NCBI GenBank assembly: GCA_045655905.1
Contig: JAZOQF010000193.1
Coordinates: forward strand, 1,102-65,101
DNA length: 64,000 bases
Reading direction: 5' to 3'
From: Acutalibacteraceae bacterium
GTDB lineage: Bacteria > Bacillota > Clostridia > Oscillospirales > Acutalibacteraceae
A model generated the notes under the pieces. It worked only from the letters and a program-made list of their open reading frames with translations, did no database searches and had not been told where the DNA came from. Below, one piece after another: positions 1 to 47,010 of the stretch. The translations under genes and the position numbers were made by a program. The stretch's first letter is position 1. Every line of letters begins with the position of its first letter.

Positions 1-326
1 CAATCAAAAGACGCATTGTAGGCGCATACTGCGCGAATGTTGTAGCGTTTGAAAATTGCAAGGATTTCTTGGCGAATGGTGTAGAGGTTGGCAACCTTGC
101 GCGTGCCTGCTTTAATCTCCTCGTAGTATTGGGGGATTTTTTCCGCATAGTAGGCACTCTGCATAAGGTCTTGCTCGCCAAAGAAAACTTCCGCATTCAC
201 ATAGGAATGTTGCTCATAGATGTTGCCCTTGCGGTCGCATACGGCAAAGCCGATGTCGTAGAAAAATGGGTCGTCAAGGGTGTTTGCGGTTTCAGTGTCA
301 AGGACAAGGTAGTAGTGTTTTTTCAT
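1..326 (-). CDS. DEDD-type 3'-5' exonuclease domain protein, N-terminal part (runs off left edge)
   Basis: ATG at 326 lies downstream of promoter 356-384. My translation MKKHYYLVLDTETANTLDDPFFYDIGFAV... carries an Exo I type LDTET motif and stays open to position 1. It replaces the antisense track ORF 69-407. Confidence 0.5.
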   Translation of the reverse strand, partial: MKKHYYLVLDTETANTLDDPFFYDIGFAVCDRKGNIYEQHSYVNAEVFFGEQDLMQSAYYAEKIPQYYEEIKAGTRKVANLYTIRQEILAIFKRYNIRAVCAYNASFD

Positions 327-355
327 AAAAGGCGGTTTCCTTTCGTGGTATACCT

Positions 356-384
356 AATTATAACACAGACAACGAAAAATGTCA
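356..384 (-). promoter_or_regulatory. sigma70/sigmaA-type early promoter
   Basis: Minus strand reads TTGACA-17 bp-TGtTATAAT. Drives the CDS ending at 326. Confidence 0.75.
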
Positions 385-392
385 AGCAAAAA

Positions 393-442
393 GTTGCACA
401 AAAATAAAAAAATTTTTTGTGCAAAATGACGGAGCGCCCGGG
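393..442. promoter_or_regulatory. operator-like inverted repeat plus GC palindrome (copy a)
   Basis: TTGCACAA 393-400 and TTGTGCAA 416-423 with a 15 bp gap, then AATGACG and GCGCCCGGGC 433-442. Sits 8 bp upstream of the -35 at 379-384. Confidence 0.5.
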
Positions 443-458
443 CCGCCTTGAGGGCGGC
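442..458 (-). terminator. GC hairpin after CDS 464-736
   Basis: GCCGCC-TTGAG-GGCGGC stem-loop just past the TAA. No clear U-run follows. Confidence 0.4.
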
Positions 459-463
459 TGACT

Positions 464-736
464 TTACAGCTCGCCCCCATAGTGGCTCTCAAGCATTGTC
501 TCAATTGCCACAATTGCGGAACCCCAAGTTTCCTCATCAGGATACCATTCAGCGCCACGCTCACACAGGAAAACAAGCTCTCCTGTGGTCTCATTCATAA
601 CCTCAATATAGGGGAATGCGTGGTCAGCCAATTTCGCCACAAGTCTTGCTTGACAATAAGAAAGATGGGGATAGGTAATTCGCGCAGTGGGCAGAGGGGA
701 ATAGGTGCGAGAGTCAAGAGTAACGGTATAGGTCAT
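464..736 (-). CDS. hypothetical early protein (90 aa)
   Basis: Internal ATG of track ORF 464-886 (MTYTVTLDS...), with an AAGGAG RBS upstream, its own promoter 765-793 and a TAA stop. Confidence 0.65.
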   Translation of the reverse strand: MTYTVTLDSRTYSPLPTARITYPHLSYCQARLVAKLADHAFPYIEVMNETTGELVFLCERGAEWYPDEETWGSAIVAIETMLESHYGGEL

Positions 737-764
737 AATAGTTCTCCTTTTTTTGTTATACCTA

Positions 765-793
765 ATTATAGCACATTTTTGGTCTCTTGTCAA
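765..793 (-). promoter_or_regulatory. sigma70/sigmaA-type early promoter
   Basis: Minus strand TTGACA-17 bp-TGcTATAAT, preceded by an AAAAATTTTTTT tract. Confidence 0.75.
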
Positions 794-816
794 GAGGTTT
801 GGCAAAAAAATTTTTC

Positions 817-843
817 CGCCCGGGCCGCTGCCAAAATTTACCA
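817..843. repeat. 27-nt intergenic repeat, copy 1
   Basis: cgcccgggccgctgccaaaatttacca is identical to 1431-1457. Confidence 0.85.
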
Positions 844-856
844 TTTTTCGCATAAG

Positions 857-878
857 AAAAAAGAGGGACAAGCCCTCT
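857..878 (-). terminator. intrinsic terminator
   Basis: AGAGGG-loop-CCCTCT stem followed on the minus strand by U6. Confidence 0.7.
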
Positions 879-882
879 TTTC

Positions 883-1308
883 TCACTCTGCTTTTGCCTT
901 GTTCCGTCTTGCAGAGTCAGCCGCAATCTTGCGAGCCTTTTTCTCTGCGGCGGCTTTGGCTTTCTGTGCCTTTTCCTCCAAGTCAATCGCATAGGACTCC
1001 AACTCTGCGTTGATGTCGGTATCCAATGCCTTGATTTTGAGGTCAATGGCGATGGTGATAGCACCAGAGCCTCCCTCGTTAGAGATGCCATCTGCGATGG
1101 CGTCGCAAGGGATTTCTACAAGGACACCGTCTGCGGCTCTGCCGACTACCTCAAACTGCTCTGCGAAATCCTCGCAAAGTGCGGCAAGCAACTCTGCTTT
1201 GAGGGCATTTCGTTCAGTTTGATGGATTTGCTCAATGCCAGCGGAATTGACGGTCACACGAAAATCTCTGTCCTTGATGGCGGAAATGAGTGCGGAAAAA
1301 TGAGTCAT
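883..1308 (-). CDS. hypothetical early protein (141 aa) with Lys/Ala/Glu-rich C-terminal tail
   Basis: Track ORF with ATG start, AGAGAGG RBS, promoter 1343-1371 and TGA stop. Confidence 0.7.
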   Translation of the reverse strand: MTHFSALISAIKDRDFRVTVNSAGIEQIHQTERNALKAELLAALCEDFAEQFEVVGRAADGVLVEIPCDAIADGISNEGGSGAITIAIDLKIKALDTDINAELESYAIDLEEKAQKAKAAAEKKARKIAADSARRNKAKAE

Positions 1309-1342
1309 ACCTAATACCTCTCTTTTGTTTTATTGTACTATA

Positions 1343-1371
1343 ATTATAACGCAAATTGCGGTAAAAGTCAA
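1343..1371 (-). promoter_or_regulatory. sigma70/sigmaA-type early promoter
   Basis: Minus strand TTGACT-17 bp-TATAAT. Confidence 0.7.
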
Positions 1372-1379
1372 TAGGCAAA

Positions 1380-1439
1380 TTGCACAAACTTTTACGAAAA
1401 TTGGAATGGAATTTGTGCAAAATGACGAAGCGCCCGGGC
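1380..1439. promoter_or_regulatory. operator-like inverted repeat plus GC palindrome (copy b)
   Basis: TTGCACAA 1380-1387 and TTGTGCAA 1413-1420 with a 25 bp gap, then AATGACG and GCGCCCGGGC 1430-1439. Sits 8 bp from the -35 at 1366-1371. Confidence 0.5.
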
Positions 1440-1457
1440 CGCTGCCAAAATTTACCA
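1431..1457. repeat. 27-nt intergenic repeat, copy 2
   Basis: Identical to 817-843. Confidence 0.85.
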
Positions 1458-1469
1458 ATTCGCGACAAT

Positions 1470-1496
1470 AAAAAAGAGAGGGGCTTTCGCCCCTCT
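1470..1496 (-). terminator. intrinsic terminator
   Basis: AGAGGGGC-GAAA-GCCCCTCT stem followed by a U-run on the minus strand. Confidence 0.8.
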
Positions 1497-1500
1497 TGCA

Positions 1501-1809
1501 TTAGTCAAACAGATTTACCGTAGGGGTAGGCTCTGCGACCTTTGCGGACTTCTTACGCTCTACCTTGACAGTGGGGTCAGCGGTGGAGATGGTAAGAGCA
1601 AGATGTGCGTACACAGTGTTACCTGTGAGATGGTCTTTCGCGACAGGAATGGAAAGACCGCCATTGACATTGGTCACAACCTCTGCGAGATTGGGGTTAG
1701 AGCCAAGTGCGGAAACTACCTGCCCCATAACCTGAGTCGCTACCATAGAGCGAACCTTTGCGGAAACATTGCCCTTCTCGTTAGTGAAAGAAATTACAGA
1801 CATAGCCAT
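1501..1809 (-). CDS. hypothetical early protein (102 aa)
   Basis: Track ORF with ATG start, GGAGAAAGG RBS, promoter 1865-1893 and TAA stop. Confidence 0.7.
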   Translation of the reverse strand: MAMSVISFTNEKGNVSAKVRSMVATQVMGQVVSALGSNPNLAEVVTNVNGGLSIPVAKDHLTGNTVYAHLALTISTADPTVKVERKKSAKVAEPTPTVNLFD

Positions 1810-1864
1810 AGTGGAAAAACCTTTCTCCGTTTTTAAGAGTGACGGCTCTCTTATTTACATACAT

Positions 1865-1893
1865 ATTATACCACAACCTTGGTGGTTTGTCAA
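1865..1893 (-). promoter_or_regulatory. sigma70/sigmaA-type early promoter
   Basis: Minus strand TTGACA-17 bp-TGgTATAAT. Confidence 0.75.
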
Positions 1894-1967
1894 GAGGTTC
1901 TTGAAAGTTTTTTGCAAAAACTTTTTACAGACCAAGCAACGCAATCTCTGTTTTCCACTCTTGACAT
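1890..1967 (-). CDS. possible leaderless micro-ORF (25 aa, MSRVENRDCVAWSVKSFCKKLSRTS)
   Basis: The ATG lies 4 nt after the -10 of promoter 1972-2000, and the TGA stop sits inside the next -35 hexamer. The ATGTCAAG start context is shared with 5749. Confidence 0.2.
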   Translation of the reverse strand: MSRVENRDCVAWSVKSFCKKLSRTS

Positions 1968-1971
1968 AACT

Positions 1972-2000
1972 ATTATACCGCATCTTCCGCCAAAAGTCAA
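1972..2000 (-). promoter_or_regulatory. sigma70/sigmaA-type early promoter
   Basis: Minus strand TTGACT-17 bp-TATAAT. Confidence 0.65.
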
Positions 2001-2012
2001 GACTTTGTTGTT

Positions 2013-2078
2013 CGTCATTTTGCACAAAGTTTTTTGTTTTTTGAGAGGGAATTTGTGCAAAATGACGGGCGCCCGGGC
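2013..2078. promoter_or_regulatory. operator-like inverted repeat with 16-bp arms plus GC palindrome (copy c)
   Basis: cgtcattttgcacaaa 2013-2028 is the reverse complement of tttgtgcaaaatgacg 2052-2067. GCGCCCGGGC lies at 2069-2078. Confidence 0.55.
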
Positions 2079-2080
2079 GA

Positions 2081-2096
2081 GTTAGCATATGCTAAC
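2081..2096 (-). terminator. perfect 16-bp palindrome hairpin overlapping the TAG stop
   Basis: GTTAGCATATGCTAAC. No U-run follows, so function is uncertain. Confidence 0.3.
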
Positions 2097-2346
2097 TCTC
2101 CCACTTTTTTGCGACTTCTTTCGCGTGGAGTTCTTCTTTAAGTAGTTGTTCTACACCAATTTCAACGCCCTCTTTAATGGTGTCAAAATCGTCCACAGAA
2201 AAATAATAAGTGTCTCTATATTTTGTGCGAAATATTTTCCAATTTGGTCTTACTACCTCGTATATACTAACTTCGCACATCGCACAACCAATAGAATAAG
2301 CACGACATTCAAAAGTACGCCCTTCTTTTTCAATAACTACTACCAT
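2092..2346 (-). CDS. hypothetical early protein (84 aa) ending in TAG
   Basis: Internal ATG of track ORF 2092-2406 (MVVVIEKEGRTFE...), with GTGAGGT RBS and promoter 2378-2406. This is the only early-region gene whose stop is TAG. Confidence 0.6.
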   Translation of the reverse strand: MVVVIEKEGRTFECRAYSIGCAMCEVSIYEVVRPNWKIFRTKYRDTYYFSVDDFDTIKEGVEIGVEQLLKEELHAKEVAKKWES

Positions 2347-2377
2347 AATGGATACCTCACTTTTTATTTCTATACAT

Positions 2378-2406
2378 ATTATATCATAAGACATACCAAA
2401 AATCAA
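2378..2406 (-). promoter_or_regulatory. sigma70/sigmaA-type early promoter
   Basis: Minus strand TTGATT-17 bp-TGaTATAAT. Confidence 0.6.
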
Positions 2407-2431
2407 TGGTCAAAGTATACAAAATAAAACC

Positions 2432-2464
2432 GTACAATTGTGCAAAATGACGAAGGCCGGGCGG
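2432..2464. promoter_or_regulatory. operator-like element with abutting half-sites (copy d)
   Basis: GTACAATTGTGCAA followed by AATGACG and a degenerate GGCCGGGCGG. Confidence 0.35.
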
Positions 2465-2602
2465 TTATTCAAAACCGCGCTGCTTCTGCTTGCGTAGCTG
2501 CTTGTCCAGCTTTTCTTGCTTCGTGGGCGTTTTCCGCGTGTACAAGCCGCCCCAAGTGGGGCGCTGCTTGCGTTCCTGTTTTTCAATGTTCTTTTTCAGC
2601 AT
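2465..2602 (-). CDS. small basic protein (45 aa)
   Basis: The ATG follows an AAGGAGAG that overlaps the TAA of 2615-3118. Sequence MLKKNIEKQERKQRPTWGGLYTRKTPTKQEKLDKQLRKQKQRGFE, below the track size cutoff. Confidence 0.5.
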   Translation of the reverse strand: MLKKNIEKQERKQRPTWGGLYTRKTPTKQEKLDKQLRKQKQRGFE

Positions 2603-2614
2603 CTCTTGCTCTCC

Positions 2615-3118
2615 TTATAGCGTCTTGCTTTCCGCTACAAAATATTTGGCGTTGTACTTGCTCAAAATAGCCTTTACTATCTCGCTTTCGTGCTGCGTAG
2701 GGCAATAGCAATTTACAATAGCATACTTGTCTGCCACCAAGATGTTATTTGCAATGCCTAATTGTTGTAGCGTTTTCACCAACTCCGCGCTTTCGTGTAG
2801 CGGAACTGTTGCTTCCACTTTCCAGAGTTTATCCTTGCGCTTCTTGAACTCTACTGCTTTCACGACATACACGCCAATGAGGTTAGCAATGCCAATGATA
2901 ACTGCTTTCCAGAAAAGACCAAGACCGTCAATGGTCATATAGACCACGACAACCGTATAAAGCGCATAGGCTACTGCGTTTGTGGCTGCTGCCGCCCACG
3001 CTCCCCATTTTACGGTGGCGATGCTCTTGATGGTTTGGATAACAACATTGACAATATTAAGGGCTACAAAGACCCAGAGAAAAACCGATAACTCAAAACT
3101 AAACCAATCCATATTCAT
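2615..3118 (-). CDS. integral membrane protein (167 aa), UPF0316/DUF2179-like layout
   Basis: Track ORF with hydrophobic helices in the N-terminal ~100 aa and a soluble C-terminal domain. The family call is from memory of that layout only. Confidence 0.6.
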   Translation of the reverse strand: MNMDWFSFELSVFLWVFVALNIVNVVIQTIKSIATVKWGAWAAAATNAVAYALYTVVVVYMTIDGLGLFWKAVIIGIANLIGVYVVKAVEFKKRKDKLWKVEATVPLHESAELVKTLQQLGIANNILVADKYAIVNCYCPTQHESEIVKAILSKYNAKYFVAESKTL

Positions 3119-3138
3119 TCTCCTTTTGTTTACAATCT

Positions 3139-3167
3139 ATTATAACACATTGTGGTGCTTTTGTCAA
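3139..3167 (-). promoter_or_regulatory. sigma70/sigmaA-type early promoter
   Basis: Minus strand TTGACA-17 bp-TGtTATAAT. Confidence 0.75.
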
Positions 3168-3176
3168 GGTATAATG

Positions 3177-3227
3177 TTGCACAAAGATAATGCGGCGAAA
3201 TTGTGCAAAATGACGGCGCGCCCGGGC
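3177..3227. promoter_or_regulatory. operator-like inverted repeat plus GC palindrome (copy e)
   Basis: TTGCACAA 3177-3184 and TTGTGCAA 3201-3208 with a 16 bp gap, then AATGACG and GCGCCCGGGC 3218-3227. Confidence 0.5.
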
Positions 3228-3229
3228 CA

Positions 3230-3250
3230 CCCTCTCCTTAACGGAGAGGG
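3230..3250 (-). terminator. GC hairpin overlapping stop codon
   Basis: CCCTCTCC-TTAAC-GGAGAGGG. Confidence 0.5.
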
Positions 3251-3462
3251 ATTTCCCAAGCGACCATACCGCAATCTAATGCGTATAGGTGCACACCACG
3301 CTTTTTGCCGTTGCATTCCAAGCCGTTTCGTGCGTTGCTGCGCTTCAAAGACATTGCGATTTTGTAGCAGATTCCGCACACAAGGCTACGGTCATCGGTT
3401 AAGCCGATGCGTTCAAAAACTTCACCAGTTTCGTAGTTGACGATGCGATAAGCGATATCCAT
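3238..3462 (-). CDS. hypothetical early protein (74 aa)
   Basis: Internal ATG of track ORF 3238-3522 (MDIAYRIVNYETGE...), with GAGGAG RBS, promoter 3494-3522 and TAA stop. Confidence 0.6.
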   Translation of the reverse strand: MDIAYRIVNYETGEVFERIGLTDDRSLVCGICYKIAMSLKRSNARNGLECNGKKRGVHLYALDCGMVAWEIPLR

Positions 3463-3493
3463 AATAAGTTCTCCTCTTGTTTGGTTATACCTA

Positions 3494-3522
3494 ATTATAC
3501 CACGGATCGGGACAAAAGTCAA
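3494..3522 (-). promoter_or_regulatory. sigma70/sigmaA-type early promoter
   Basis: Minus strand TTGACT-17 bp-TGgTATAAT. Confidence 0.7.
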
Positions 3523-3560
3523 GGGTTTTGCGAAAAAAATTTTTTGGCCCGGGCTAGGCC

Positions 3561-3579
3561 GCGAGGGTCAAGCCCTCGC
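3561..3579 (-). terminator. GC hairpin overlapping stop codon
   Basis: GCGAGGG-TCAAG-CCCTCGC. Confidence 0.5.
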
Positions 3580-3999
3580 TTCCAGCCATTCTACCATTTT
3601 TCTACTCTCGTCTTTCGCTCTGATTTTGGTCTTGCTACCATTTTTCTCGCTCTCGCGGGTCAAGTAGCCAAATTCGGTAACGAAAGTTCTAAACTCGCTC
3701 GCGTTCATCTCGTAGACCTTGAACTCGCGACTTACATAGGCGAAAGTCTTGCTCGCGACTCTTGCGAAATAATCGTCAAGCATCTCGCTCATTGTAGAGC
3801 CTTTCAGTTGCCCACCAGAGCAGAGGGAGAACTTGGCACTCTTGACGCTCATATCAAGTTCGGGGATATCAGAGCCTTCATACCATTTGAGATTGCCGTG
3901 CTTGCGGAGGCAACCAGTCTTTTCGTATGTAAGGGAGGCTTCACAGTTTTGACCGTGATTGGCATAAGCGGAGATATTAGAAATAAAGTAAGTAGTCAT
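3568..3999 (-). CDS. early paralog family member 1 (143 aa)
   Basis: Track ORF. Shares an N-terminal NHGxN..E, a central S(A/V)K(S)A...C.G and a C-terminal ESEKNG..K.R.KDES..M.E.LE.RA with 5881-6282 and 6493-6894. Confidence 0.7.
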   Translation of the reverse strand: MTTYFISNISAYANHGQNCEASLTYEKTGCLRKHGNLKWYEGSDIPELDMSVKSAKFSLCSGGQLKGSTMSEMLDDYFARVASKTFAYVSREFKVYEMNASEFRTFVTEFGYLTRESEKNGSKTKIRAKDESRKMVEWLEARA

Positions 4000-4032
4000 T
4001 TGGGGTATCCTTTCCTCTTGTGGTTATACCTA

Positions 4033-4061
4033 ATTATAACATACCTCGGGCAGTTTGTCAA
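4033..4061 (-). promoter_or_regulatory. sigma70/sigmaA-type early promoter
   Basis: Minus strand TTGACA-17 bp-TGtTATAAT. Confidence 0.75.
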
Positions 4062-4200
4062 GGGGTTTGGCGAAATTTTTTTTGAAATTTTTTTGTGGCT
4101 ACTGCTGCTGCTCGCATTGGTAAAATTTACCAGGGGCGCTAGCGCGCCCGGGCTGCTTATTTTATCCTTCAGGGATCCGGGCAGCCGGGCCGGGCGCAAT

Positions 4201-4228
4201 AAAAAAGGCCTGCCGAATCCGGCAGGCC
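4201..4228 (-). terminator. intrinsic terminator
   Basis: GGCCTGCC-loop-GGCAGGCC followed by U6 on the minus strand. Confidence 0.8.
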
Positions 4229-4233
4229 CGCGG

Positions 4234-4515
4234 TTAGGGATTTTCCCTAACCTCTGCGGTATGGATGTTGAGCCGCTCATTGCATTCGTAGCAAGTTTTT
4301 GCGGCATAGTAGTCAAACGGCTTGCAGTATTCGCGCATAAAAGCGGAAATGTGTCTGCGGGTAGTTGCGGAATAAAGCCCGTATACGGTTAGCCATCCGT
4401 CCGCGTCAAGTTCGGCTACGCGCGTATAGTAAGAGTAAAGATGGATGTTGCCGTTGTCGTCAATCTCAATGTGTGCTTGTGCATAGGGCATTGCGGAAAG
4501 TTTCTTGATAGTCAT
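4234..4515 (-). CDS. hypothetical early protein (93 aa)
   Basis: Track ORF with ATG start, AAGAGGA RBS, promoter 4549-4577 and TAA stop. Confidence 0.7.
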   Translation of the reverse strand: MTIKKLSAMPYAQAHIEIDDNGNIHLYSYYTRVAELDADGWLTVYGLYSATTRRHISAFMREYCKPFDYYAAKTCYECNERLNIHTAEVRENP

Positions 4516-4548
4516 TGTTGTTATCCTCTTTTCTTTTGGTTGTACCTT

Positions 4549-4577
4549 ATTATACCATATATCGGGCAGTTTGTCAA
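4549..4577 (-). promoter_or_regulatory. sigma70/sigmaA-type early promoter
   Basis: Minus strand TTGACA-17 bp-TGgTATAAT. Confidence 0.75.
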
Positions 4578-4611
4578 GGGTTTTGATGAAAAAAGTTGAA
4601 ATTTTTTGTAG

Positions 4612-4636
4612 AAAAAAAGAGGGACATTATCCCTCT
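4612..4636 (-). terminator. intrinsic terminator
   Basis: AGAGGGA-loop-TCCCTCT followed by U7 on the minus strand. Confidence 0.75.
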
Positions 4637-4752
4637 TTGTGTAGCGCGTGGCTTGGGCATTCTGTACAGTGACAGTTGAAGCACATTTCCTCATCCTCGT
4701 GGGGATTGCGGTCACACCAACGCTCTGGTTTTTCTATGATATTTGTAGTCAT
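4627..4752 (-). CDS. Cys-rich small protein (41 aa, probable zinc binder)
   Basis: My translation is MTTNIIEKPERWCDRNPHEDEEMCFNCHCTECPSHALHKEG, with AGAGGAAAG RBS and promoter 4785-4813. The track ORF 4521-4715 is in another frame and lacks these signals. Confidence 0.5.
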   Translation of the reverse strand: MTTNIIEKPERWCDRNPHEDEEMCFNCHCTECPSHALHKEG

Positions 4753-4784
4753 TTGTCTTTCCTCTTTCTTTTTTGTTATAACTA

Positions 4785-4813
4785 ATTATACCACATATCG
4801 GGTAGTTTGTCAA
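4785..4813 (-). promoter_or_regulatory. sigma70/sigmaA-type early promoter
   Basis: Minus strand TTGACA-17 bp-TGgTATAAT. Confidence 0.75.
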
Positions 4814-4965
4814 TAGGTTTGTAAAAGTTTTTTATTTTTTCTGCGAGTTTTTCGCTTGCCTTGTTTTTTATCCTCGCGCAATTTTCTGAGCCTTGCGCGC
4901 TGACAACAAAAAGCACGCGCGAACTTATCCTCTTTATAGTCTTTTTTATGTTCGTTGTTCGCCAT
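4810..4965 (-). CDS. very basic small protein (51 aa)
   Basis: My translation is MANNEHKKDYKEDKFARAFCCQRARLRKLREDKKQGKRKTRRKNKKLLQTY, with AGAGAGG RBS. The TGA stop is embedded in the next -35 hexamer (TATTGACA). Confidence 0.5.
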   Translation of the reverse strand: MANNEHKKDYKEDKFARAFCCQRARLRKLREDKKQGKRKTRRKNKKLLQTY

Positions 4966-4989
4966 TGTTTTTACCTCTCTTTTGTATAT

Positions 4990-5018
4990 ATTATACCATA
5001 TTTCGGCTCATTTGTCAA
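4990..5018 (-). promoter_or_regulatory. sigma70/sigmaA-type early promoter
   Basis: Minus strand TTGACA-17 bp-TGgTATAAT. Confidence 0.75.
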
Positions 5019-5058
5019 GAGTTTCGGCGAAAATTTTTTTGGCGCCCGGGCCGCGGCC

Positions 5059-5077
5059 GAGAGGGATGTTCCCTCTC
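5059..5077 (-). terminator. GC hairpin overlapping stop codon
   Basis: GAGAGGGA-TGT-TCCCTCTC, followed by GGCCGCGGCCCGGGCGCC. Confidence 0.45.
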
Positions 5078-5237
5078 AAGCCACCTCTGTATAGGTAACA
5101 ACATTGTTGACGGTATACAGTTTTTCAATCTTGATTGACGGATTGGTTTTGAAGACATAGTTGCAAAACTCACCGCCATTTTCAAAATAGAGTCTGCCGT
5201 TGTTAAGGGTTACGATGATATAGGAAAGATGTGCCAT
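5076..5237 (-). CDS. hypothetical small early protein (53 aa)
   Basis: My translation is MAHLSYIIVTLNNGRLYFENGGEFCNYVFKTNPSIKIEKLYTVNNVVTYTEVA, with AGAGGTAAA RBS and promoter 5271-5299. Below the track cutoff. Confidence 0.55.
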   Translation of the reverse strand: MAHLSYIIVTLNNGRLYFENGGEFCNYVFKTNPSIKIEKLYTVNNVVTYTEVA

Positions 5238-5270
5238 AATTTTTACCTCTTTTTCTTTTTGTTATACCTA

Positions 5271-5299
5271 ATTATACCATATCGGGAGAGGGATGTCAA
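5271..5299 (-). promoter_or_regulatory. sigma70/sigmaA-type early promoter
   Basis: Minus strand TTGACA-17 bp-TGgTATAAT. Confidence 0.75.
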
Positions 5300-5347
5300 G
5301 GGGTTTTGAAAAAAAGTTAAAAAATTTTTTGGCGCCCGGGCCGCGCA

Positions 5348-5384
5348 CGAAAGCACCCCAAGCAAGAGGAAAAACTTGGGGTGC
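5348..5384 (-). terminator. intrinsic terminator of the RNA cassette
   Basis: GCACCCCAAG-12 nt loop-CTTGGGGTGC, a 10-bp stem followed by CUUU on the minus strand. Confidence 0.65.
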
Positions 5385-5562
5385 CAAATAGGGGAACCGA
5401 AGCCCACACCTATTTTGTTCAATTTTAATTTACCCTTATTTTTAAGGGTTGAGTGTTGTAAAAGGGAAGCCTTGCAAGGTGACTTCTCCCCTCTCCTAGC
5501 ACCTTTTCTCCCTCTGCGAGAGTGGCAGCCTTGAAGTACAGTTCGTCGTCCTTCCCTCTTAC
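5348..5562 (-). ncRNA. candidate structured small RNA (~215 nt)
   Basis: Lies between consensus promoter 5569-5597 and terminator 5353-5384. The transcript contains no AUG. A closing helix GUAAGAGGGAAG / CUUCCCUUUUAC is present, plus hairpins AAGGUG..CACCUU, ACCCUUA..UAAGGGU and AAAUAGG..CCUAUUU. Confidence 0.4.
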
Positions 5563-5568
5563 ACTCAT

Positions 5569-5597
5569 ATTATACCACAAAACTTGTGGTTTGTCAA
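5569..5597 (-). promoter_or_regulatory. sigma70/sigmaA-type early promoter
   Basis: Minus strand TTGACA-17 bp-TGgTATAAT. The -10 abuts the ATG of track ORF 5425-5610, which argues against that ORF. Confidence 0.75.
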
Positions 5598-5668
5598 GGG
5601 ATTTCTGCAAAAAACTTTAGAATTTTTTGCATCCTCGTGCGTTCCTATGCGACTCGTCTATCGCAATT

Positions 5669-5749
5669 TTATGAGCACTAAGGTCTATTGCTACTTCCAA
5701 CCGTAGCCCCACACCGCAGATGTGGCTCAGAGGTATCTCCCCTTGACAT
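5669..5749 (-). CDS. possible leaderless micro-ORF (MSRGDTSEPHLRCGATVGSSNRP, then TAG-CS-TAA) or short RNA
   Basis: The ATG lies 4 nt after the -10 of promoter 5754-5782. The ATGTCAAG context matches 1967. The region also folds into several small hairpins. Confidence 0.2.
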
Positions 5750-5753
5750 TATT

Positions 5754-5782
5754 ATTATAACATATTGTGGCTTGCTTGTCAA
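5754..5782 (-). promoter_or_regulatory. sigma70/sigmaA-type early promoter
   Basis: Minus strand TTGACA-17 bp-TGtTATAAT. Confidence 0.7.
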
Positions 5783-5791
5783 TATGGCATT

Positions 5792-5851
5792 TTGCACAAA
5801 CTTTGGGGCTGCTGGCGCGCAGCTTTTGTGCATATTGACGGGCGCCCGGGC
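5792..5851. promoter_or_regulatory. operator-like inverted repeat plus GC palindrome (copy f)
   Basis: TTGCACAA 5792-5799 and TTGTGCAt 5826-5833 with a 26 bp gap, then ATTGACG and GCGCCCGGGC 5842-5851. Confidence 0.45.
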
Positions 5852-5866
5852 GCTAGCGGCCGGGGC

Positions 5867-5895
5867 AAAAAAGAGAGGGCTTATACCGCCCTCTC
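5867..5895 (-). terminator. intrinsic terminator
   Basis: GAGAGGGC-loop-GCCCTCTC overlapping the TAA, followed by U6 on the minus strand. Confidence 0.75.
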
Positions 5896-6282
5896 CTCAA
5901 GATATTTCAGCATTGCTTGTGACTCATCTTTTAATCTCATCTTAACCGCACCGCCGTTTTTCTCGCTCTCGGTTGTAACCGTTGCAAATGCGGTACAGAA
6001 TGCGATGTATTCGGCTTTAGTCATCTTGTATGCGATGCCAGCCTTTGTGCCGTAGATGTATTCGGTAGCACAGTCATCTTCAAGATACTTGACGATGTCA
6101 GTGCCCTTGCACACAGTTGCTCTCGCGCTCTTGATTTGGTAAATCAGGCAATCAGTGCCTTTGTTGTGCGCGATGTTGTCGGCTTTTTCAAGCTTGCCTG
6201 TGAGCAAGTAGCGGATGGATTGCTCTACATTGTGCCCGTGGTTGTGGTAGTTGTTGAGATAAGTGAAGTTGAAAGTAGTCAT
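5881..6282 (-). CDS. early paralog family member 2 (133 aa)
   Basis: Track ORF. About half its residues match 6493-6894 (LTGK.EKADNIAH.KGTD, KSARATVCKGTDI, ESEKNGG). Confidence 0.75.
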   Translation of the reverse strand: MTTFNFTYLNNYHNHGHNVEQSIRYLLTGKLEKADNIAHNKGTDCLIYQIKSARATVCKGTDIVKYLEDDCATEYIYGTKAGIAYKMTKAEYIAFCTAFATVTTESEKNGGAVKMRLKDESQAMLKYLEERAV

Positions 6283-6314
6283 TGATTGTGTCCTCTCTTG
6301 TTTGGTTGTACCTT

Positions 6315-6343
6315 ATTATACCATATAAACCCGGGCTTGTCAA
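6315..6343 (-). promoter_or_regulatory. sigma70/sigmaA-type early promoter
   Basis: Minus strand TTGACA-17 bp-TGgTATAAT, with CCCGGG inside the spacer. Confidence 0.75.
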
Positions 6344-6376
6344 GGGGTTTGCAAAAAATTTTTAAAAAATTTTTGT

Positions 6377-6490
6377 AGCTGCTGCTGGTGCGCGTGTGCG
6401 CGTGTATACACGGGTGCTGCTGGTGGTGCTGCTGGTGCTGCGTGTGCGCATATATATACGCGGGCGGGCGGGCGCGTGCGCGTGGACGGG
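6377..6490. repeat. simple-sequence mosaic I
   Basis: Successive blocks of (GCT/GGT)n, alternating GC/GT runs (gcgcgtgtgcgcgtgtatacac), tatatata and GGGCGGGCGGGC...GGGG. Confidence 0.9.
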
Positions 6491-6509
6491 GCTCACCTTG
6501 CGGTGAGCC
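6490..6509 (-). terminator. GC hairpin overlapping stop codon
   Basis: GGCTCACC-TTGC-GGTGAGCC. Confidence 0.5.
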
Positions 6510-6894
6510 ATTCCAACATTCTTTGTGTTTCGTGTCCCAGCCTGATTTTTGGGGTTCCCCCGTTCTTTTGGCTCTCACGGGTTACTGTGCCGAAGACTTG
6601 CACAAATTGCTCATATTCAGTACGGCTCATTATGTAGGCGGTGCCGTCTTTGGTGATGTAGGCGTATTTGCTTGCCTTGTCGGCATCAAGGTAGGCTTTG
6701 ATGTCGGTGCCCTTGCAGACGGTTGCTCTTGCCGATTTTACGGAATAGATGCCGATGTCGGTACCCTTGTCATGTGCGATGTTGTCGGCTTTTTCAACCT
6801 TACCCGTTAGGGTGTAGCGGAACCATTGTTCAAGGTGTTGTCCGTTGTTGCGGTAGGTGCGGTTAAAATTGGGGGTTAGAGTGAAGTGTTTCAT
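6493..6894 (-). CDS. early paralog family member 3 (133 aa)
   Basis: Internal ATG of track ORF 6493-6954 (MKHFTLTPNF...), with AGAGAGGA RBS, promoter 6926-6954 and TGA stop. Confidence 0.75.
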   Translation of the reverse strand: MKHFTLTPNFNRTYRNNGQHLEQWFRYTLTGKVEKADNIAHDKGTDIGIYSVKSARATVCKGTDIKAYLDADKASKYAYITKDGTAYIMSRTEYEQFVQVFGTVTRESQKNGGTPKIRLGHETQRMLEWLTAR

Positions 6895-6925
6895 TTTTGT
6901 ATCCTCTCTTGTTTGGTTGTACCTT

Positions 6926-6954
6926 ATTATACCATATGCACGGGCGGTTGTCAA
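6926..6954 (-). promoter_or_regulatory. sigma70/sigmaA-type early promoter (leftward arm, first cassette)
   Basis: Minus strand TTGACA-17 bp-TGgTATAAT. Confidence 0.75.
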
Positions 6955-7039
6955 TAGGTTTTTGAAAAAAAGTTAAAGAAATATTGCACAAATTTGAGAG
7001 GGAAATTTTGTGCAACTTTTTTTCAAAAACCTATTGACA
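6949..7039. promoter_or_regulatory. palindromic divergent control region
   Basis: The 26-bp arm tgtcaataggtttttgaaaaaaagtt (6949-6974) is the exact reverse complement of 7014-7039. Each arm contains a -35 hexamer. TTGCACAA 6984-6991 and TTGTGCAA 7008-7015 lie between them (copy g). Confidence 0.8.
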
Positions 7040-7062
7040 CGGGCGGAAAAGTGTGCTATAAT
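7034..7062 (+). promoter_or_regulatory. sigma70/sigmaA-type early promoter
   Basis: TTGACAcgggcggaaaagtgtgcTATAAT with a 17 bp spacer. Confidence 0.75.
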
Positions 7063-7095
7063 TAGTACAGAAATAAAGAAAGAGAGGGAAAAACA

Positions 7096-7197
7096 ATGTT
7101 AGGCGGTATTCTTTTTTTCGCAACCGTTGCGCTGTGTGCTTTTCTTCTTTGGGGCGCGTTTGGTGTACGCTCTATCAGAGAAGCGATTATGAGATGA
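7096..7197 (+). CDS. small hydrophobic peptide (33 aa)
   Basis: MLGGILFFATVALCAFLLWGAFGVRSIREAIMR, with GAGAGGGA RBS, TGA stop and terminator 7200-7222. Confidence 0.5.
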   Translation: MLGGILFFATVALCAFLLWGAFGVRSIREAIMR

Positions 7198-7199
7198 GA

Positions 7200-7222
7200 G
7201 GGAGCCGAAGGCTCCCTTTTTT
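7200..7222 (+). terminator. intrinsic terminator
   Basis: GGGAGCC-GAA-GGCTCCC followed by T6. Confidence 0.85.
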
Positions 7223-7258
7223 CTTAAAAAATTTTTTAAAAAATTTTTCAAAAAGTGC

Positions 7259-7287
7259 TTGACACGGGCGGAAAAGTGTGCTATAAT
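7259..7287 (+). promoter_or_regulatory. sigma70/sigmaA-type early promoter
   Basis: Same 29-mer TTGACAcgggcggaaaagtgtgcTATAAT as at 7034 and 8330. Confidence 0.75.
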
Positions 7288-7322
7288 ATAGACAGAAAGC
7301 AAGAGAAAGAGAGGAAAAGAAA

Positions 7323-7460
7323 ATGCTTTGGACTATCAAAAACACAATAACAGGACAGGTAGCCGCGGCTTTTGGTGTTACCAAAAAAGAGGCTTGCGAT
7401 GCTCTCAATTGGAATTATCGCGTTTGCGAAGTTCTCGCCTCTACTTGCCGTTATTGGTAA
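7323..7460 (+). CDS. small early protein (45 aa)
   Basis: MLWTIKNTITGQVAAAFGVTKKEACDALNWNYRVCEVLASTCRYW, with AGAGAGGAAAAG RBS, TAA stop and terminator 7469-7491. Confidence 0.5.
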   Translation: MLWTIKNTITGQVAAAFGVTKKEACDALNWNYRVCEVLASTCRYW

Positions 7461-7468
7461 GAGGGAGA

Positions 7469-7491
7469 GGGAGCCGAAAGGCTCCCTTTTT
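7469..7491 (+). terminator. intrinsic terminator
   Basis: GGGAGCC-GAAA-GGCTCCC followed by T5. Confidence 0.85.
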
Positions 7492-7520
7492 GTATTGCTT
7501 TAATGTTAAAATTTTACAAT

Positions 7521-8034
7521 TTTTAATGCTACTGCTTGCTGCGTGTTGCCGCTGCTGCCTGCTGCTGCTCGTGCTGCCGTCGCCGTTGCTGATGGCGTGT
7601 GCGTGCGTGCGTGCGTGCGTGCGTGGGTGTGTGTGGGTGTGCTTATCCCTATCCTATCCCTATCTTATCCCTATCCTATCCCTATCCTATCCCTATCCTA
7701 TCCCTATCCTATCTTTATCCTATCCCTATCCTATCTTTATCCTATCTTTATCCTATCCCTATCCTATCTTTATCCTATCTTTATCCTATCCCTATCCTAT
7801 CTTTATCCTATCCCTATCCTATCTTTATCCTTGTCTTGTCTTGTCTTTGTCTTGTCTTTGTCTTGTCTTTGTCTTGTCTTTGTCTTGTCTTTTGTGTGTG
7901 TGTGTGTGTGTATGTGCAGACGGAGAGCGACGGACAGAACAACGGAGCAACGGAGAGAGAGGGAGAGAGGGAGAGAGGGAGAGAGAGGGAGAGAGGGAGA
8001 AAGGCTTTTTCTAAAAAAAAAAAAAAAAAAAAAA
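7521..8034. repeat. simple-sequence mosaic II (about 510 bp)
   Basis: Ordered blocks: CTG/GCC-rich 7528-7595; (GTGC)n and GT-rich 7605-7642; a G-free TATCC/TATCTT-type repeat 7643-7830; (CTTGT/CTTTGT)n 7829-7892; (GT)n 7893-7916; ACGG-rich 7921-7953; polypurine (GGGAGAGA)n 7953-8003; A22 8013-8034. Confidence 0.95.
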
Positions 8035-8057
8035 TAAAAAAAATTTTTCAAAATCCC

Positions 8058-8086
8058 TTGACACGGGCGAAAAACTATGTTATAAT
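8058..8086 (+). promoter_or_regulatory. sigma70/sigmaA-type early promoter
   Basis: TTGACAcgggcgaaaaactatgtTATAAT with a 17 bp spacer. Confidence 0.75.
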
Positions 8087-8139
8087 TAGTACAGAAAGAG
8101 GGAAGGAAAACCGACTAAACCAAGAAAGGAAAGAGGAAA

Positions 8140-8256
8140 ATGTTTGATAGAAATGCTTTGGAAAACTTTGTGTGTGGTATCGTTACAAAAGGCTGGATTG
8201 TAGTCGTTGCAATGTTTGCAGTAACTATGGCTTTGTTGATGACAGTAGGAGCATAA
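8140..8256 (+). CDS. small hydrophobic peptide (38 aa)
   Basis: MFDRNALENFVCGIVTKGWIVVVAMFAVTMALLMTVGA, with AAGAGGAAA RBS and TAA stop. Confidence 0.5.
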   Translation: MFDRNALENFVCGIVTKGWIVVVAMFAVTMALLMTVGA

Positions 8257-8263
8257 AAGGAGA

Positions 8264-8321
<58 letters not shown>

Positions 8322-8329
8322 AAAACCCC

Positions 8330-8358
8330 TTGACACGGGCGGAAAAGTGTGCTATAAT
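8330..8358 (+). promoter_or_regulatory. sigma70/sigmaA-type early promoter
   Basis: TTGACAcgggcggaaaagtgtgcTATAAT. Confidence 0.75.
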
Positions 8359-8415
8359 ATAGACAGTAAAAGGGAAGGAAAACCGACTAAACCACAAGAA
8401 AGAAAGAGGTAAAAA

Positions 8416-8598
8416 ATGAAACTTTATATTGTTATGTTCAAGGATGCTTGCGAATGGGAAGCACAGGAATGGTTGGGCGGAGTATTCTCCACCGAGGAAA
8501 AAGCTCAGGCGTATATGGAAGCATACATCAACGATGATGATGACGACGATGTAGAAGGATACATCACCACCCGCACCTTGGATGACGATGAGTTATAA
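8416..8598 (+). CDS. acidic small protein (60 aa)
   Basis: Track ORF with AAGAGGTAAAAA RBS and a D/E-rich C-terminal half (DDDDDDVEGY...DDDEL). Confidence 0.7.
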   Translation: MKLYIVMFKDACEWEAQEWLGGVFSTEEKAQAYMEAYINDDDDDDVEGYITTRTLDDDEL

Positions 8599-8605
8599 AA
8601 AGAGA

Positions 8606-8629
8606 GGGAGCCGAAAGGCTCCCTTTTTT
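8606..8629 (+). terminator. intrinsic terminator
   Basis: GGGAGCC-GAAA-GGCTCCC followed by T6. Confidence 0.85.
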
Positions 8630-8631
8630 CT

Positions 8632-8653
8632 AAAAAAAAAAAAAAAAAAAAAA
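8632..8653. repeat. poly(A)22 tract upstream of promoter
   Basis: A run of 22 A. Confidence 0.95.
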
Positions 8654-8675
8654 TAAAAATTTTTTTAAAAACCCC

Positions 8676-8704
8676 TTGACAAACCCCTCAAACTATGCTA
8701 TAAT
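8676..8704 (+). promoter_or_regulatory. sigma70/sigmaA-type early promoter
   Basis: TTGACA-17 bp-TGcTATAAT. Confidence 0.75.
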
Positions 8705-8735
8705 ATAGACAGAAAGAACGAAAGAGGTAAACACA

Positions 8736-8834
8736 ATGAAAACACTTAAAACTTTTGCAAGAGAGAATAACGCGACTGAGGTAAACATCTACCATCGCAG
8801 AAAGACCGCAACCTTAAAGGGTCTTTGCAAGTAA
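8736..8834 (+). CDS. basic 32-aa peptide, paralog 1
   Basis: MKTLKTFARENNATEVNIYHRRKTATLKGLCK, with AAGAGGTAAA RBS. About 70 percent identical to 9363-9461. Confidence 0.55.
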   Translation: MKTLKTFARENNATEVNIYHRRKTATLKGLCK

Positions 8835-8840
8835 CCGAGA

Positions 8841-8865
8841 GGAAGCCGAAAGGCTTCCTTTTTTT
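8841..8865 (+). terminator. intrinsic terminator
   Basis: GGAAGCC-GAAA-GGCTTCC followed by T7. Confidence 0.85.
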
Positions 8866-8900
8866 ACTAAAAAATTTTTTAAAAATTTTTCAAAAATCCC

Positions 8901-8929
8901 TTGACAAATGCCCGGGAATTTGTTATAAT
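8901..8929 (+). promoter_or_regulatory. sigma70/sigmaA-type early promoter
   Basis: TTGACA-17 bp-TGtTATAAT, with CCCGGG in the spacer. Confidence 0.75.
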
Positions 8930-8986
8930 TAATACAGAAAGAGGGAAGAAAAACCGACTAAACCACAATACAGAAAGAGGTATAAA

Positions 8987-9235
8987 ATGACTAAACTTGA
9001 ATTGATGGCAATGCTTGAAGGTATCGCAGATGATGCAGAAATCACTTTTGTAGAAAGCGTGAGAGACCGCGATGGTTATCCCCAAGATGAAAGAGTAAAG
9101 GTCTACAAGGTACTTGGTGGCGAGGTTGTAAGTGTGAGAGGCGAATGCGGTTGCTACACTCTTGAAAATCTCACAGATGAAATTGAGTATATCCGCTGGA
9201 ATGAATATGGCGGATATTACCGCAGAAAGAAATAA
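8987..9235 (+). CDS. hypothetical early protein (82 aa)
   Basis: Track ORF with AAGAGGTATAAA RBS and TAA stop. Confidence 0.7.
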   Translation: MTKLELMAMLEGIADDAEITFVESVRDRDGYPQDERVKVYKVLGGEVVSVRGECGCYTLENLTDEIEYIRWNEYGGYYRRKK

Positions 9236-9242
9236 AAAGAGA

Positions 9243-9266
9243 GGGAGTCGCAAGACTCCCTTTTTT
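9243..9266 (+). terminator. intrinsic terminator
   Basis: GGGAGTC-GCAA-GACTCCC followed by T6. Confidence 0.85.
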
Positions 9267-9302
9267 ACTAAAAAAATTTTTAAAAAATTTTTTATAAACC
9301 CC

Positions 9303-9331
9303 TTGACAAACTCGCCAAACTATGATATAAT
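9303..9331 (+). promoter_or_regulatory. sigma70/sigmaA-type early promoter
   Basis: TTGACA-17 bp-TGaTATAAT. Confidence 0.75.
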
Positions 9332-9362
9332 TAGTACAGAAAGAAAGAAAAGAGGATACAAA

Positions 9363-9461
9363 ATGAAAACCCTGAAGACCTTCGCAAACACCGCAAACAT
9401 CACCGAGGTAAACACTTACCACCGCAGAAAGCCCGCAACCCTGAAAGCAATGTGTAAGTAA
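9363..9461 (+). CDS. basic 32-aa peptide, paralog 2
   Basis: MKTLKTFANTANITEVNTYHRRKPATLKAMCK, the tail of track ORF 9162-9461, with AAGAGGATACAAA RBS. Confidence 0.55.
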   Translation: MKTLKTFANTANITEVNTYHRRKPATLKAMCK

Positions 9462-9467
9462 GGGGAT

Positions 9468-9516
9468 GCCCCCCTCTCTCCCGATAAAATGGGAGAGACC
9501 CCGGGGGGGTGTTTTT
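9468..9516 (+). terminator. long GC hairpin terminator closing the rightward early arm
   Basis: TCTCTCCC-GATAAAAT-GGGAGAGA inner stem, flanked by C6/G7 runs and followed by T5. Confidence 0.65.
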
Positions 9517-9659
9517 GTGGAAAAAGTTGACCGCCAAAAATGCGTAACGAACACTGGGCAAAAGATTATCTACGCAATTTTTCAGCTTCCCACATTCCAA
9601 AACCCAAACAAAATTAAACCCCACACTCCAATCCAGCCTTTTCCATCCAATCCTCAACT

Positions 9660-9688
9660 AAAAAAAGAGAACCCCTTTCGAGGTTCTC
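9660..9688 (-). terminator. intrinsic terminator
   Basis: GAGAACC-loop-GGTTCTC followed by U7 on the minus strand. Confidence 0.75.
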
Positions 9689-10058
9689 AATCCATTAAAA
9701 TTCGCTTGATCTAATTTAAGCTTTCGACCGCAATTCCTGGAGCGCTCAATTCCAATCCAACCAAAACATTGCCGCTTCTTTTATAAATTCCAGAAGCCAA
9801 ACTGAAAATCATATCGCCACCAACGATCTTACAGTTCAAAATTTTCAACTCTTCTGCGGTCGAAAAATCCAACATTGCGGCAAAAGAGCCATCAGACTGC
9901 ACACTGACCTGAACATTTTGCGGCGGGATCTAACAAAAATGCGCGAGGTTAGCTTGTTTTTCCGCGACGGTGCGGGATAATAGCTACTGAAAGTCAATAT
10001 TGTTTGGACATACTTCGTCTTCTGGCATTATTTTTGTTGTTTTTACTGTTGTTTCCAT
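9687..10058 (-). CDS. hypothetical protein (123 aa) with 3 in-frame TAG
   Basis: Extends track ORF 9711-9902 through TAG at 9711, 9930 and 9984 to a TGA at 9687. Promoter 10121-10149. No good RBS is present, so the start (ATG 10058 or 10028) is uncertain. Confidence 0.4.
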
Positions 10059-10120
10059 ATCTTTTGTAACGGAAGATTTGTTTGTTTGTTTTGTTTCCGT
10101 TCTCCTGTTCTCCTACAATT

Positions 10121-10149
10121 ATTATATCGCAATTTGCGGCCGAAGTCAA
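10121..10149 (-). promoter_or_regulatory. sigma70/sigmaA-type promoter
   Basis: Minus strand TTGACT-17 bp-TATAAT. Confidence 0.65.
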
Positions 10150-10173
10150 GTTCTTTTTTACGCCTCTGTAAAT

Positions 10174-10202
10174 TTGACTTTTACAATCTTTTGTGGTATA
10201 AT
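10174..10202 (+). promoter_or_regulatory. sigma70/sigmaA-type promoter at head of packaging/structural operon
   Basis: TTGACT-17 bp-TGgTATAAT, 29 nt upstream of ATG 10231. Confidence 0.7.
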
Positions 10203-46981: not shown

Positions 46982-47010
46982 AGTATATCACAATTTTCGC
47001 TCTAAATCAA
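46982..47010 (-). promoter_or_regulatory. sigma70/sigmaA-type promoter
   Basis: Minus strand TTGATT-17 bp-TGaTATACT. Confidence 0.55.

Follow-up and report, generated by a model that had tools for sequence, protein, structure and literature searches.

What is the inverted repeat that recurs upstream of roughly a quarter of the early promoters in this DNA? The stretch analysed here (the window, 64 kb of contig JAZOQF010000193.1) is part of a large double-stranded DNA phage, and its positions 1-10,200 form a divergent early region with 25 promoters, 17 leftward and 8 rightward (an earlier count gave 24). Nearly all of these are perfect, TTGACA-N17 (with TG)-TATAAT, each is followed by one short gene, and there is a hairpin after most of the genes. 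The repeat is a real and selected site; it is conserved in related phages, its spacing is quantised, its place is tied to the -35 hexamer, and it is no RNA structure. Judging from the sequence, we consider it probable (roughly 0.7) that it is a double-stranded DNA operator for a sequence-specific protein at a subset of the early promoters, and that protein is probably encoded by the phage. Protein binding, DNA bending, contact with RNA polymerase and the sign of the regulation are what we infer.

The window contains six complete TTGCACAA-N-TTGTGCAW inverted repeats and one lone arm, all of them in the divergent early region between 394 and 7015, and the gaps of the six pairs are, in order, 15, 25, 25, 16, 26 and 16 bp. 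Counting both the 8-mer and its complement gives 18 occurrences where 4.5 would be due to chance, a number reached in none of 100 shuffles, and 12 of the 18 form the six pairs; the paired form, TTGCACAA-N10-40-TTGTGCAW, gives six sites (11 strand-wise matches) where 0.00 are expected. The other six 8-mers (at 6598, 11446, 15107, 33634, 35340 and 36461) are unpaired and at chance level. The original prediction had asked whether the motif is as frequent elsewhere in the genome, and within the 64-kb window it is not. It had also counted seven copies, and a site is indeed present at each of the seven places, but only six are pairs: what was taken at 2432-2445 for a copy with a gap of 0 is one distal arm alone, TTGTGCAAAATGACG (2438-2452), and the abutting 8-mer matches at only 5 of 8 bases.

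The full arm is longer than 8 nucleotides (nt), being 14-15 nt of the form TTGTGCAA-WW-TGAC, and TTGTGCAAWWTKMC occurs 11 times in the window where 1.06 are expected. The element as a whole reads GTCA-WW-TTGCACAA, spacer, TTGTGCAA-WW-TGAC, and on the minus strand, in the direction of transcription, the order is hairpin, GCCCGGGCGC, 1-2 nt, CGTCATTTTGCACAA, a spacer of 15, 16, 25 or 26 nt, TTGTGCAA, 8-9 nt and the -35 hexamer. Two features of this arrangement had been described beforehand and both are borne out: in four copies 8-9 bp lie between the promoter-proximal half-site and the -35 hexamer (which starts at 385, 1371, 3167 and 5782), and the extended distal half-site TTGTGCAAAATGACG is followed by GCGCCCGGGC in five copies and, with two mismatches, in one more.

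To see what is conserved we turned to relatives, which were found by querying public collections with the distal arm and the neighbouring palindrome GCCCGGGC (the GC box) only. Because the proximal arm was not in the query, its recurrence in the relatives is an independent test. Matches came from six contigs of IMG/VR, from 50 loci in metagenomes and from one contig of 2.9 kb assigned to a metagenome-assembled genome (MAG) of Eubacteriales; the relatives resemble SPbeta in their replication genes, and the element is kept in more than 40 related metagenomic loci. Fifty of the 52 non-redundant instances have a proximal TTGTGCAA (with at most 2 mismatches) at a gap of 15, 16, 25 or 26, followed by a promoter. 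When all gaps from 5 to 44 were scanned in the relatives, pairs were found at 15 (10), 16 (47), 17 (2), 25 (41), 26 (94), 27 (2) and 43 (6), and at nothing else, and the proposed two spacing classes one helical turn apart thus hold in an independent sample. The associated argument that the half-sites lie on the same face of the DNA is only partly sustained, since the two classes do differ by 10 bp, but the core centres are 23/24 and 33/34 bp apart and so are not separated by integral turns.

The spacers are unrelated between the relatives' instances while the arms are conserved, and these free spacers rule out that the repeat is a relic of duplication. The distance from the proximal core to the -35 hexamer is 8 nt in 25 cases and 9 nt in 28, with a second class at 17-19 nt in 7 and smaller classes at 23-25, 29 and 32-33 nt. 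Consensus profiles of the relatives have the WW-TGAC extension on both arms, and the first base of the spacer is A in 88%. Within the spacers the AT/GC content varies with a roughly 10-bp period: the N16 spacer has a GC-rich centre (38% AT) and A/T-rich ends, and the N25/26 spacer is AT-rich in the middle (76-85%), with dips towards GC some 9 nt in from either arm. DNA that curves between the arms in a single, constant direction should show such a pattern, since 10 bp more in the spacer moves the dyad round by half a turn. Readings of the arms as sigma-54, alternative or divergent promoters were rejected, as inspection reveals no -10-like or -24/-12-like partner at a fixed distance.

An inverted repeat could also act in RNA, as a hairpin in read-through transcripts that serves as a processing, attenuation or termination signal. 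The repeat does lie downstream of the preceding gene, and several of the upstream hairpins have no clear T-run (for example those at 385 and 3167), such that some read-through is conceivable. However, the stem would consist of just 8 A/U-rich pairs closing a loop of 15-26 nt, with no fixed T-run, and proper terminators already precede copies 2 and 6; the register, moreover, is held to the downstream -35 and not to the upstream gene. Among one-sided arm changes in the relatives, 39 of 50 break the pairing and 11 keep it, and there are 5 double changes. The changes are therefore non-compensatory, in agreement with the original prediction that RNA hairpins fit poorly, and we regard this explanation as extremely improbable. 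Arms conserved around free spacers in more than 40 loci, arm changes that do not compensate, and a fixed register to the -35 hexamer together support an operator.

The promoters that carry the repeat are a class of their own. Once the promoters are de-duplicated at 70% identity, TTGACA is the -35 hexamer of 37% of the 99 that bear the repeat versus 77% of the 448 others (Fisher p ~1e-13), and A/T runs are shorter at the repeat promoters (4.3 versus 6.0 nt). Repeat-free early promoters carry AAAAATTTTT-type A/T tracts upstream, at about -40 to -60, and the repeat promoters have the mixed-sequence proximal arm instead. Of the suggestion that the repeat marks a separate temporal class, the separate class is thus upheld, as one of poorer -35 hexamers and no A/T-tract upstream element; it may or may not be a temporal one. 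We considered whether the arm is itself a sigma-70/sigma-A upstream (UP) element and rejected this, as the repeat promoters have no A/T tract and a mixed-sequence dyad arm stands at that place. The repeat is modular, with the same early gene families found behind promoters with or without it in different phages, and no link to a particular downstream gene family was found among the relatives' early loci.

The model that we propose is as follows. The site fills the slot that runs from the GCCCGGGC box to the -35 hexamer at a subset of the early promoters, which use the main sigma factor of the host, and it stands there in place of the A/T-tract upstream element found at other early promoters. 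The arms would be occupied by two protomers or by two dimers, with the 15/16-bp or 25/26-bp spacer bent between them, and the proximal protomer, ending 2-3 bp from the -35 hexamer, would touch RNA polymerase at sigma region 4 or at the alpha C-terminal domain. Repeat promoters would respond to the factor, and the other early promoters would be constitutive. As to the sign of the regulation, we lean towards activation or stabilisation of the polymerase, giving a delayed-early class, because the -35 hexamers are weaker and the upstream element is missing; we would put this at slightly short of even odds. Repression or shut-off through the same polymerase contact is the less likely sign, and is kept in play because the retained extended -10 means that these promoters may be active alone.

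The other side of the slot is marked by the GC box. The palindrome GCCCGGGC occurs 10 times in the window against 0.2 expected, and all ten boxes are intergenic in the leftward early arm, with none in the rightward arm. That at 436-443 adjoins the distal arm of copy 1, with equivalents at 1432-1439, 2071-2078, 3220-3227 and 5844-5851, and the boxes at 818, 3547, 4146, 5044 and 5334 stand before repeat-free promoters; the box thus sits between the upstream hairpin and the promoter whether or not the inverted repeat is present. At repeat-free promoters its distance to the -35 hexamer is weakly periodic at 9.5-10 bp (Rayleigh p ~5e-4, uncorrected). It is conserved across the relatives, including lineages that use other motifs, and it may be a boundary element or a site for a second protein.

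These other motifs came to light in six further contigs that were reached through an early protein family and not through the motif. They have the same cassette architecture, and in most of them the GCCCGGGC box as well, with other palindromes in the slot. In L200 and L201 the slot motif is GCCCGGGC-N2-4-TTGAR-N6-CTYAA, in 7-8 copies; L196 has AAATATATTAT paired with ATAATATA across the GC box, as ATAATATA...(G)TCCGGGCG...AAATATATTAT, in about 14-20 copies; and L197 has CTTAAC/GTTAAC words that abut the -35 hexamer (L200, L201, L196 and L197 are the IMG/VR contigs 3300031760_004865, 3300028591_000834, 3300045988_167483 and 3300031760_000018). That the slot is kept while its motif changes by lineage suggests lineage-specific binding proteins, and not a property of RNA polymerase or of RNA. 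Tentatively, and at rather less than even odds, the repeat may be one word of a regulatory code that spans an extensive clade of uncultivated phages and in which each lineage places its own palindromes (ATAATATA...TATATTAT, TTGAR-N6-CTYAA or CTTAAC elsewhere) in the fixed slot, to be read by rapidly co-evolving phage factors; the factor here would wrap some 45-65 bp in two registers and contact the polymerase, and GCCCGGGC would be a clade-wide protein site or boundary.

The same conserved architecture could in principle be kept for homology, if the intergenic block (terminator hairpin, GCCCGGGC, arms and promoter) were a recombination or mobility module that shuffles early-gene cassettes, a role that has been proposed for the promoter/stem-loop repeats of T4-like phages. 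Promoters and genes are indeed reshuffled between these phages, and many contigs that diverge elsewhere share an identical 27-nt block, GCCCGGGCGC-N-CGTCATTTTGCACAA. Homology nonetheless leaves the inverted symmetry, the quantised gaps and the free spacers unexplained, along with the 8-9-bp register, the periodicity of AT/GC content in the spacers and the replacement of one palindrome by another in the same slot, and we consider such a module quite improbable.

Several observations weigh against the operator as we have described it. The related loci are not phylogenetically independent and the p-values are accordingly optimistic; the layouts with 23-25 or 32-33 bp between core and -35 hexamer are out of phase with those at 8-9 bp; and 42 of the 99 promoters with a proximal core have no distal core within one mismatch, many of these 42 having degenerate distal arms. 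The repeat promoters should also fire unaided, because all keep the consensus extended -10 (TGnTATAAT) and about 60% keep TTGACA or TTGACT at the -35 position, and this weakens the case for activation. Finally, scans of about 50 window proteins against Pfam and PHROGs gave no recognisable regulator, both winged-helix candidates fail checks of co-occurrence or specificity, and the factor might come from the host.

The first of these candidates, 46603-46887 (minus strand), had been put forward as a possible binder, and it does encode a genuine winged-helix protein of 94 amino acids (AlphaFold2 predicted local distance difference test score (pLDDT) 82), with its best Foldseek matches to the winged-helix domains of MepR/MarR and TFIIE. 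It is a monocistronic gene inside the replication module, with its own promoter at 46982-47010 (TTGATT-N17-TATACT), a strong ribosome-binding site and a terminator, and it has 41 homologous clusters, with homologues of 56-73% identity in 40 clusters, on contigs of up to 122 kb. As the binder it fares poorly, as the family was detected in only one of the seven repeat-bearing IMG/VR contigs; the loci of its homologues have no repeat in their 10-kb flanks, the early region of the window being about 40 kb from the gene. The second candidate is an early winged-helix family (cluster 0) of 105-138 amino acids, with N-terminal helices, a basic linker, a winged helix and sub-threshold matches to MarR_2/TrmB. 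Nearly all relatives carry it 1-4 times in their early loci, and in L121-L174 and L196-L201 (for example L148, L144, L127 and L199) there are 1-5 paralogues per 10-14 kb of early region, every one behind a promoter of its own; the window has none. The family is unlikely to set the specificity, as its recognition helix, NQKASALL, is unchanged in lineages with other motifs.

A factor encoded by the host, such as a clostridial global regulator that the phage exploits and that would tie a subset of its early genes to host physiology, would bind the same operator. That the scans turned up no conserved phage-encoded binder speaks for it, the lineage-specific motifs could reflect different hosts, and one matching contig was binned in a Eubacteriales MAG. 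However, that contig is only 2.9 kb long and carries two phage-type promoter cassettes, and is thus probably phage DNA, and the motif was found on phage-like contigs only. To our knowledge there is no Firmicutes regulator with a 14-nt arm and the N15/25 geometry. A host factor therefore appears improbable, although less so than either a recombination module or an RNA hairpin.

The operator is most readily compared with that of protein p4 of phage phi29, a DNA-bending dimer that binds CTTTTT-N15-AAAATG at promoters A2c/A2b/A3, is required at a late promoter with a poor -35 and represses strong, early promoters (PMC3100819). This is the closest functional analogue: both sites are inverted repeats with a spacer of about 15 bp, and both adjoin or precede the -35 hexamer at host sigma-A promoters of Firmicutes phages. 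A/T patterns matter in the p4 site, and p4 splits its promoters into regulatory classes, as the factor here would. The repeat described here is nevertheless not of the p4 family. The sequences are unrelated, the arms being 14-15 nt of mixed sequence here and A-tracts with a single recognised G in p4 sites; the N25/26 class also exists here and outnumbers N15/16, the class that fits the p4 spacing; the N16 spacer has the GC-rich centre described above where p4 sites have a central A-tract; and there are dozens of sites per genome in place of four. When 30 window proteins (20 of which are small), a subset of the open reading frames (ORFs) of a probably incomplete genome, were scanned against PHROGs, no p4-like protein or transcription regulator was found.

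The SPbeta-like polymerase of this phage also prompted a comparison with SPBRE, the operator of the SPbeta master repressor MrpR/YopR, which unites about ten promoters in one regulon (PMC10516654). SPBRE is likewise a repeated, intergenic and promoter-associated motif, in a phage with a syntenic replication module. As derived from the ten MrpR-bound promoters of NC_001884, it reads ACAAATACAAAWAATATGTATAT and bears no resemblance to TTGTGCAAWWTGAC; it is a single motif of the 15-bp class located in the core promoter spacer/-10, in contrast to a long-spaced inverted repeat wholly upstream of the -35. Identity with SPBRE/MrpR was thus rejected on both sequence and position. SPbeta (NC_001884) has neither the paired TTGCACAA repeat nor GCCCGGGC, and ORFs 44557-45546, 45563-46435, 25058-25984, 29517-30437 and 16541-17554 (about 290-340 amino acids) gave no Pfam match to an MrpR-like integrase fold, in a genome that is probably incomplete.

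The repeat also resembles the sites of CRP (class I/II) and of AraC, a flexible-spacing regulator, in that it adjoins or lies upstream of the -35 hexamer with a dependence on helix face (the 8-9 and 17-19 bp classes), and in that its half-sites can be moved apart by whole turns. A CRP-type site is a compact palindrome of 22 bp, TGTGA-N6-TCACA, unlike the cores here, which are 23-34 bp apart, and no family of CRP or AraC type is recognisable in the window. A literature search for the 8-mers returned primer noise only. We conclude that the motif is new and that the element is a new instance of a familiar kind, the upstream operator in contact with the polymerase. It is unusual in the length of its arms, in its two quantised registers, in the conserved GC palindrome that accompanies it and in the replacement of its motif from lineage to lineage.

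The individual copies differ in their symmetry and position. Copy 1 (394-431, starting at 394 and not at 393 as first given) is TTGCACAA-N15-TTGTGCAAAATGACG, with 8-mers at 394-401 and 417-424 and a gap of 15, and 8 bp separate the end of its proximal core from the -35 hexamer of promoter 357-385 (leftward, TTGACA-N17 (with TG)-TATAAT). Copy 2 (1374-1427) has a proximal arm at 1374-1387 (reverse complement TTGTGCAATTTGCC), a gap of 25 and a distal arm at 1413-1427; its 8-mers are at 1380-1387 and 1413-1420, and the core is 8 bp from the -35 hexamer of promoter 1343-1371 (minus strand). Copy 3 (2013-2067), CGTCATTTTGCACAA-N25-TTGTGCAAAATGACG, has perfectly symmetric 15-nt arms with 8-mers at 2020-2027 and 2053-2060, and its core is 19 bp from the -35 hexamer of promoter 1972-2000 (minus strand). 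This last is the distal one of two tandem promoters before gene 1501-1809 (minus strand) and has TTGACT as its -35; the proximal one, 1865-1893, is of the plain consensus type, with an A/T tract and no repeat. Should both of these promoters (1865-2000) fire, the gene would receive constitutive as well as regulated input.

The lone distal-type arm TTGTGCAAAATGACG at 2438-2452 has no proper partner; a degenerate GC box is found at 2455-2464, and the arm lies upstream of promoter 2378-2406 (minus strand), which has a weak -35 (TTGATT). Copy 5 (3177-3215) is TTGCACAA-N16-TTGTGCAAAATGACG, with 8-mers at 3177-3184 and 3201-3208 and a core 9 bp from the -35 hexamer of promoter 3139-3167 (minus strand). 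In copy 6 (5786-5840) the proximal arm at 5786-5799 (reverse complement TTGTGCAAAATGCC) is separated by a gap of 26 from the distal arm TTGTGCATATTGACG at 5826-5840; the 8-mers are at 5792-5799 and 5826-5833, the second being TTGTGCAT with one mismatch, and the core is 9 bp from the -35 hexamer of promoter 5754-5782 (minus strand). Copy 7 (6984-7015) consists of cores only (8-mers at 6984-6991 and 7008-7015, gap 16) without the TGAC extension, and lies between divergent promoters, 18 bp from the -35 of the rightward promoter 7034-7062 (plus strand) and 29 bp from that of the leftward promoter 6926-6954 (minus strand). Its layout of cores only, N16 and 17-19 bp recurs in relatives L170 and L171.

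Beyond the early region, the window contains a replication module syntenic with yorG-yorL of SPbeta, which encodes a Sak4-like ATPase, a DnaB-like helicase, a primase, a RecJ-like nuclease and a 1304-amino-acid polymerase that is 40% identical to SPbeta YorL. The phage genome is probably incomplete, because the source contig is about 66 kb and relatives reach 94-197 kb. A near-identity search of deposited phages with positions 1-8000 yielded no close match in DNA, and a sensitive search with the 81-nt element at 2005-2085 gave nothing usable and found no cultured relative with the element. Rfam and tRNA scans of the window gave zero matches.

Several other features of the early region were observed. 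Three paralogous early proteins of 133-143 amino acids (3568-3999, 5881-6282 and 6493-6894, all on the minus strand) have separate promoters; they match nothing in Pfam or PHROGs and have homologues in the early loci of 9-14 relatives. Behind two consensus promoters (-35 starts at 5597 and 5782) there is no credible ORF, at 5345-5562 and 5625-5747 respectively (both minus strand). The 218-nt stretch 5345-5562 folds better than shuffled sequence (z = -3.3) and the 123-nt stretch 5625-5747 has a z of -1.8; relative L026 matches part of the former and its promoter at 78% identity over 184 aligned nt (roughly 5455-5631). Neither stretch matches an Rfam family, and they may be phage non-coding RNAs. 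The rightward early arm is dense in simple repeats (7599-8043, 8291-8325 and 6413-6441), including nine copies of GTGC, 17 of TATCCCTATCC, six of CTTGTCTTTGT and six of GAGAGAGG; poly(A) runs of 31 and 35 nt lie directly upstream of the promoters with -35 starts at 8058 and 8330, and a GC-rich block at 6360-6490 contains a GGTGCTGCTGGT repeat.

No current view of how phages control transcription is overturned by an operator of this kind. If confirmed, it would provide a first handle on the ordering of early expression in a large uncultivated group of big Firmicutes phages, and the 14-nt arm, the two registers and the fixed distance to the -35 hexamer could be used as bait for the regulator. 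The repeat would also be a computational marker with which early genes can be sorted into regulons across metagenomes, and the lineage-wise swapping of motifs in a fixed slot would make these phages well suited to the study of how operators and regulators co-evolve.

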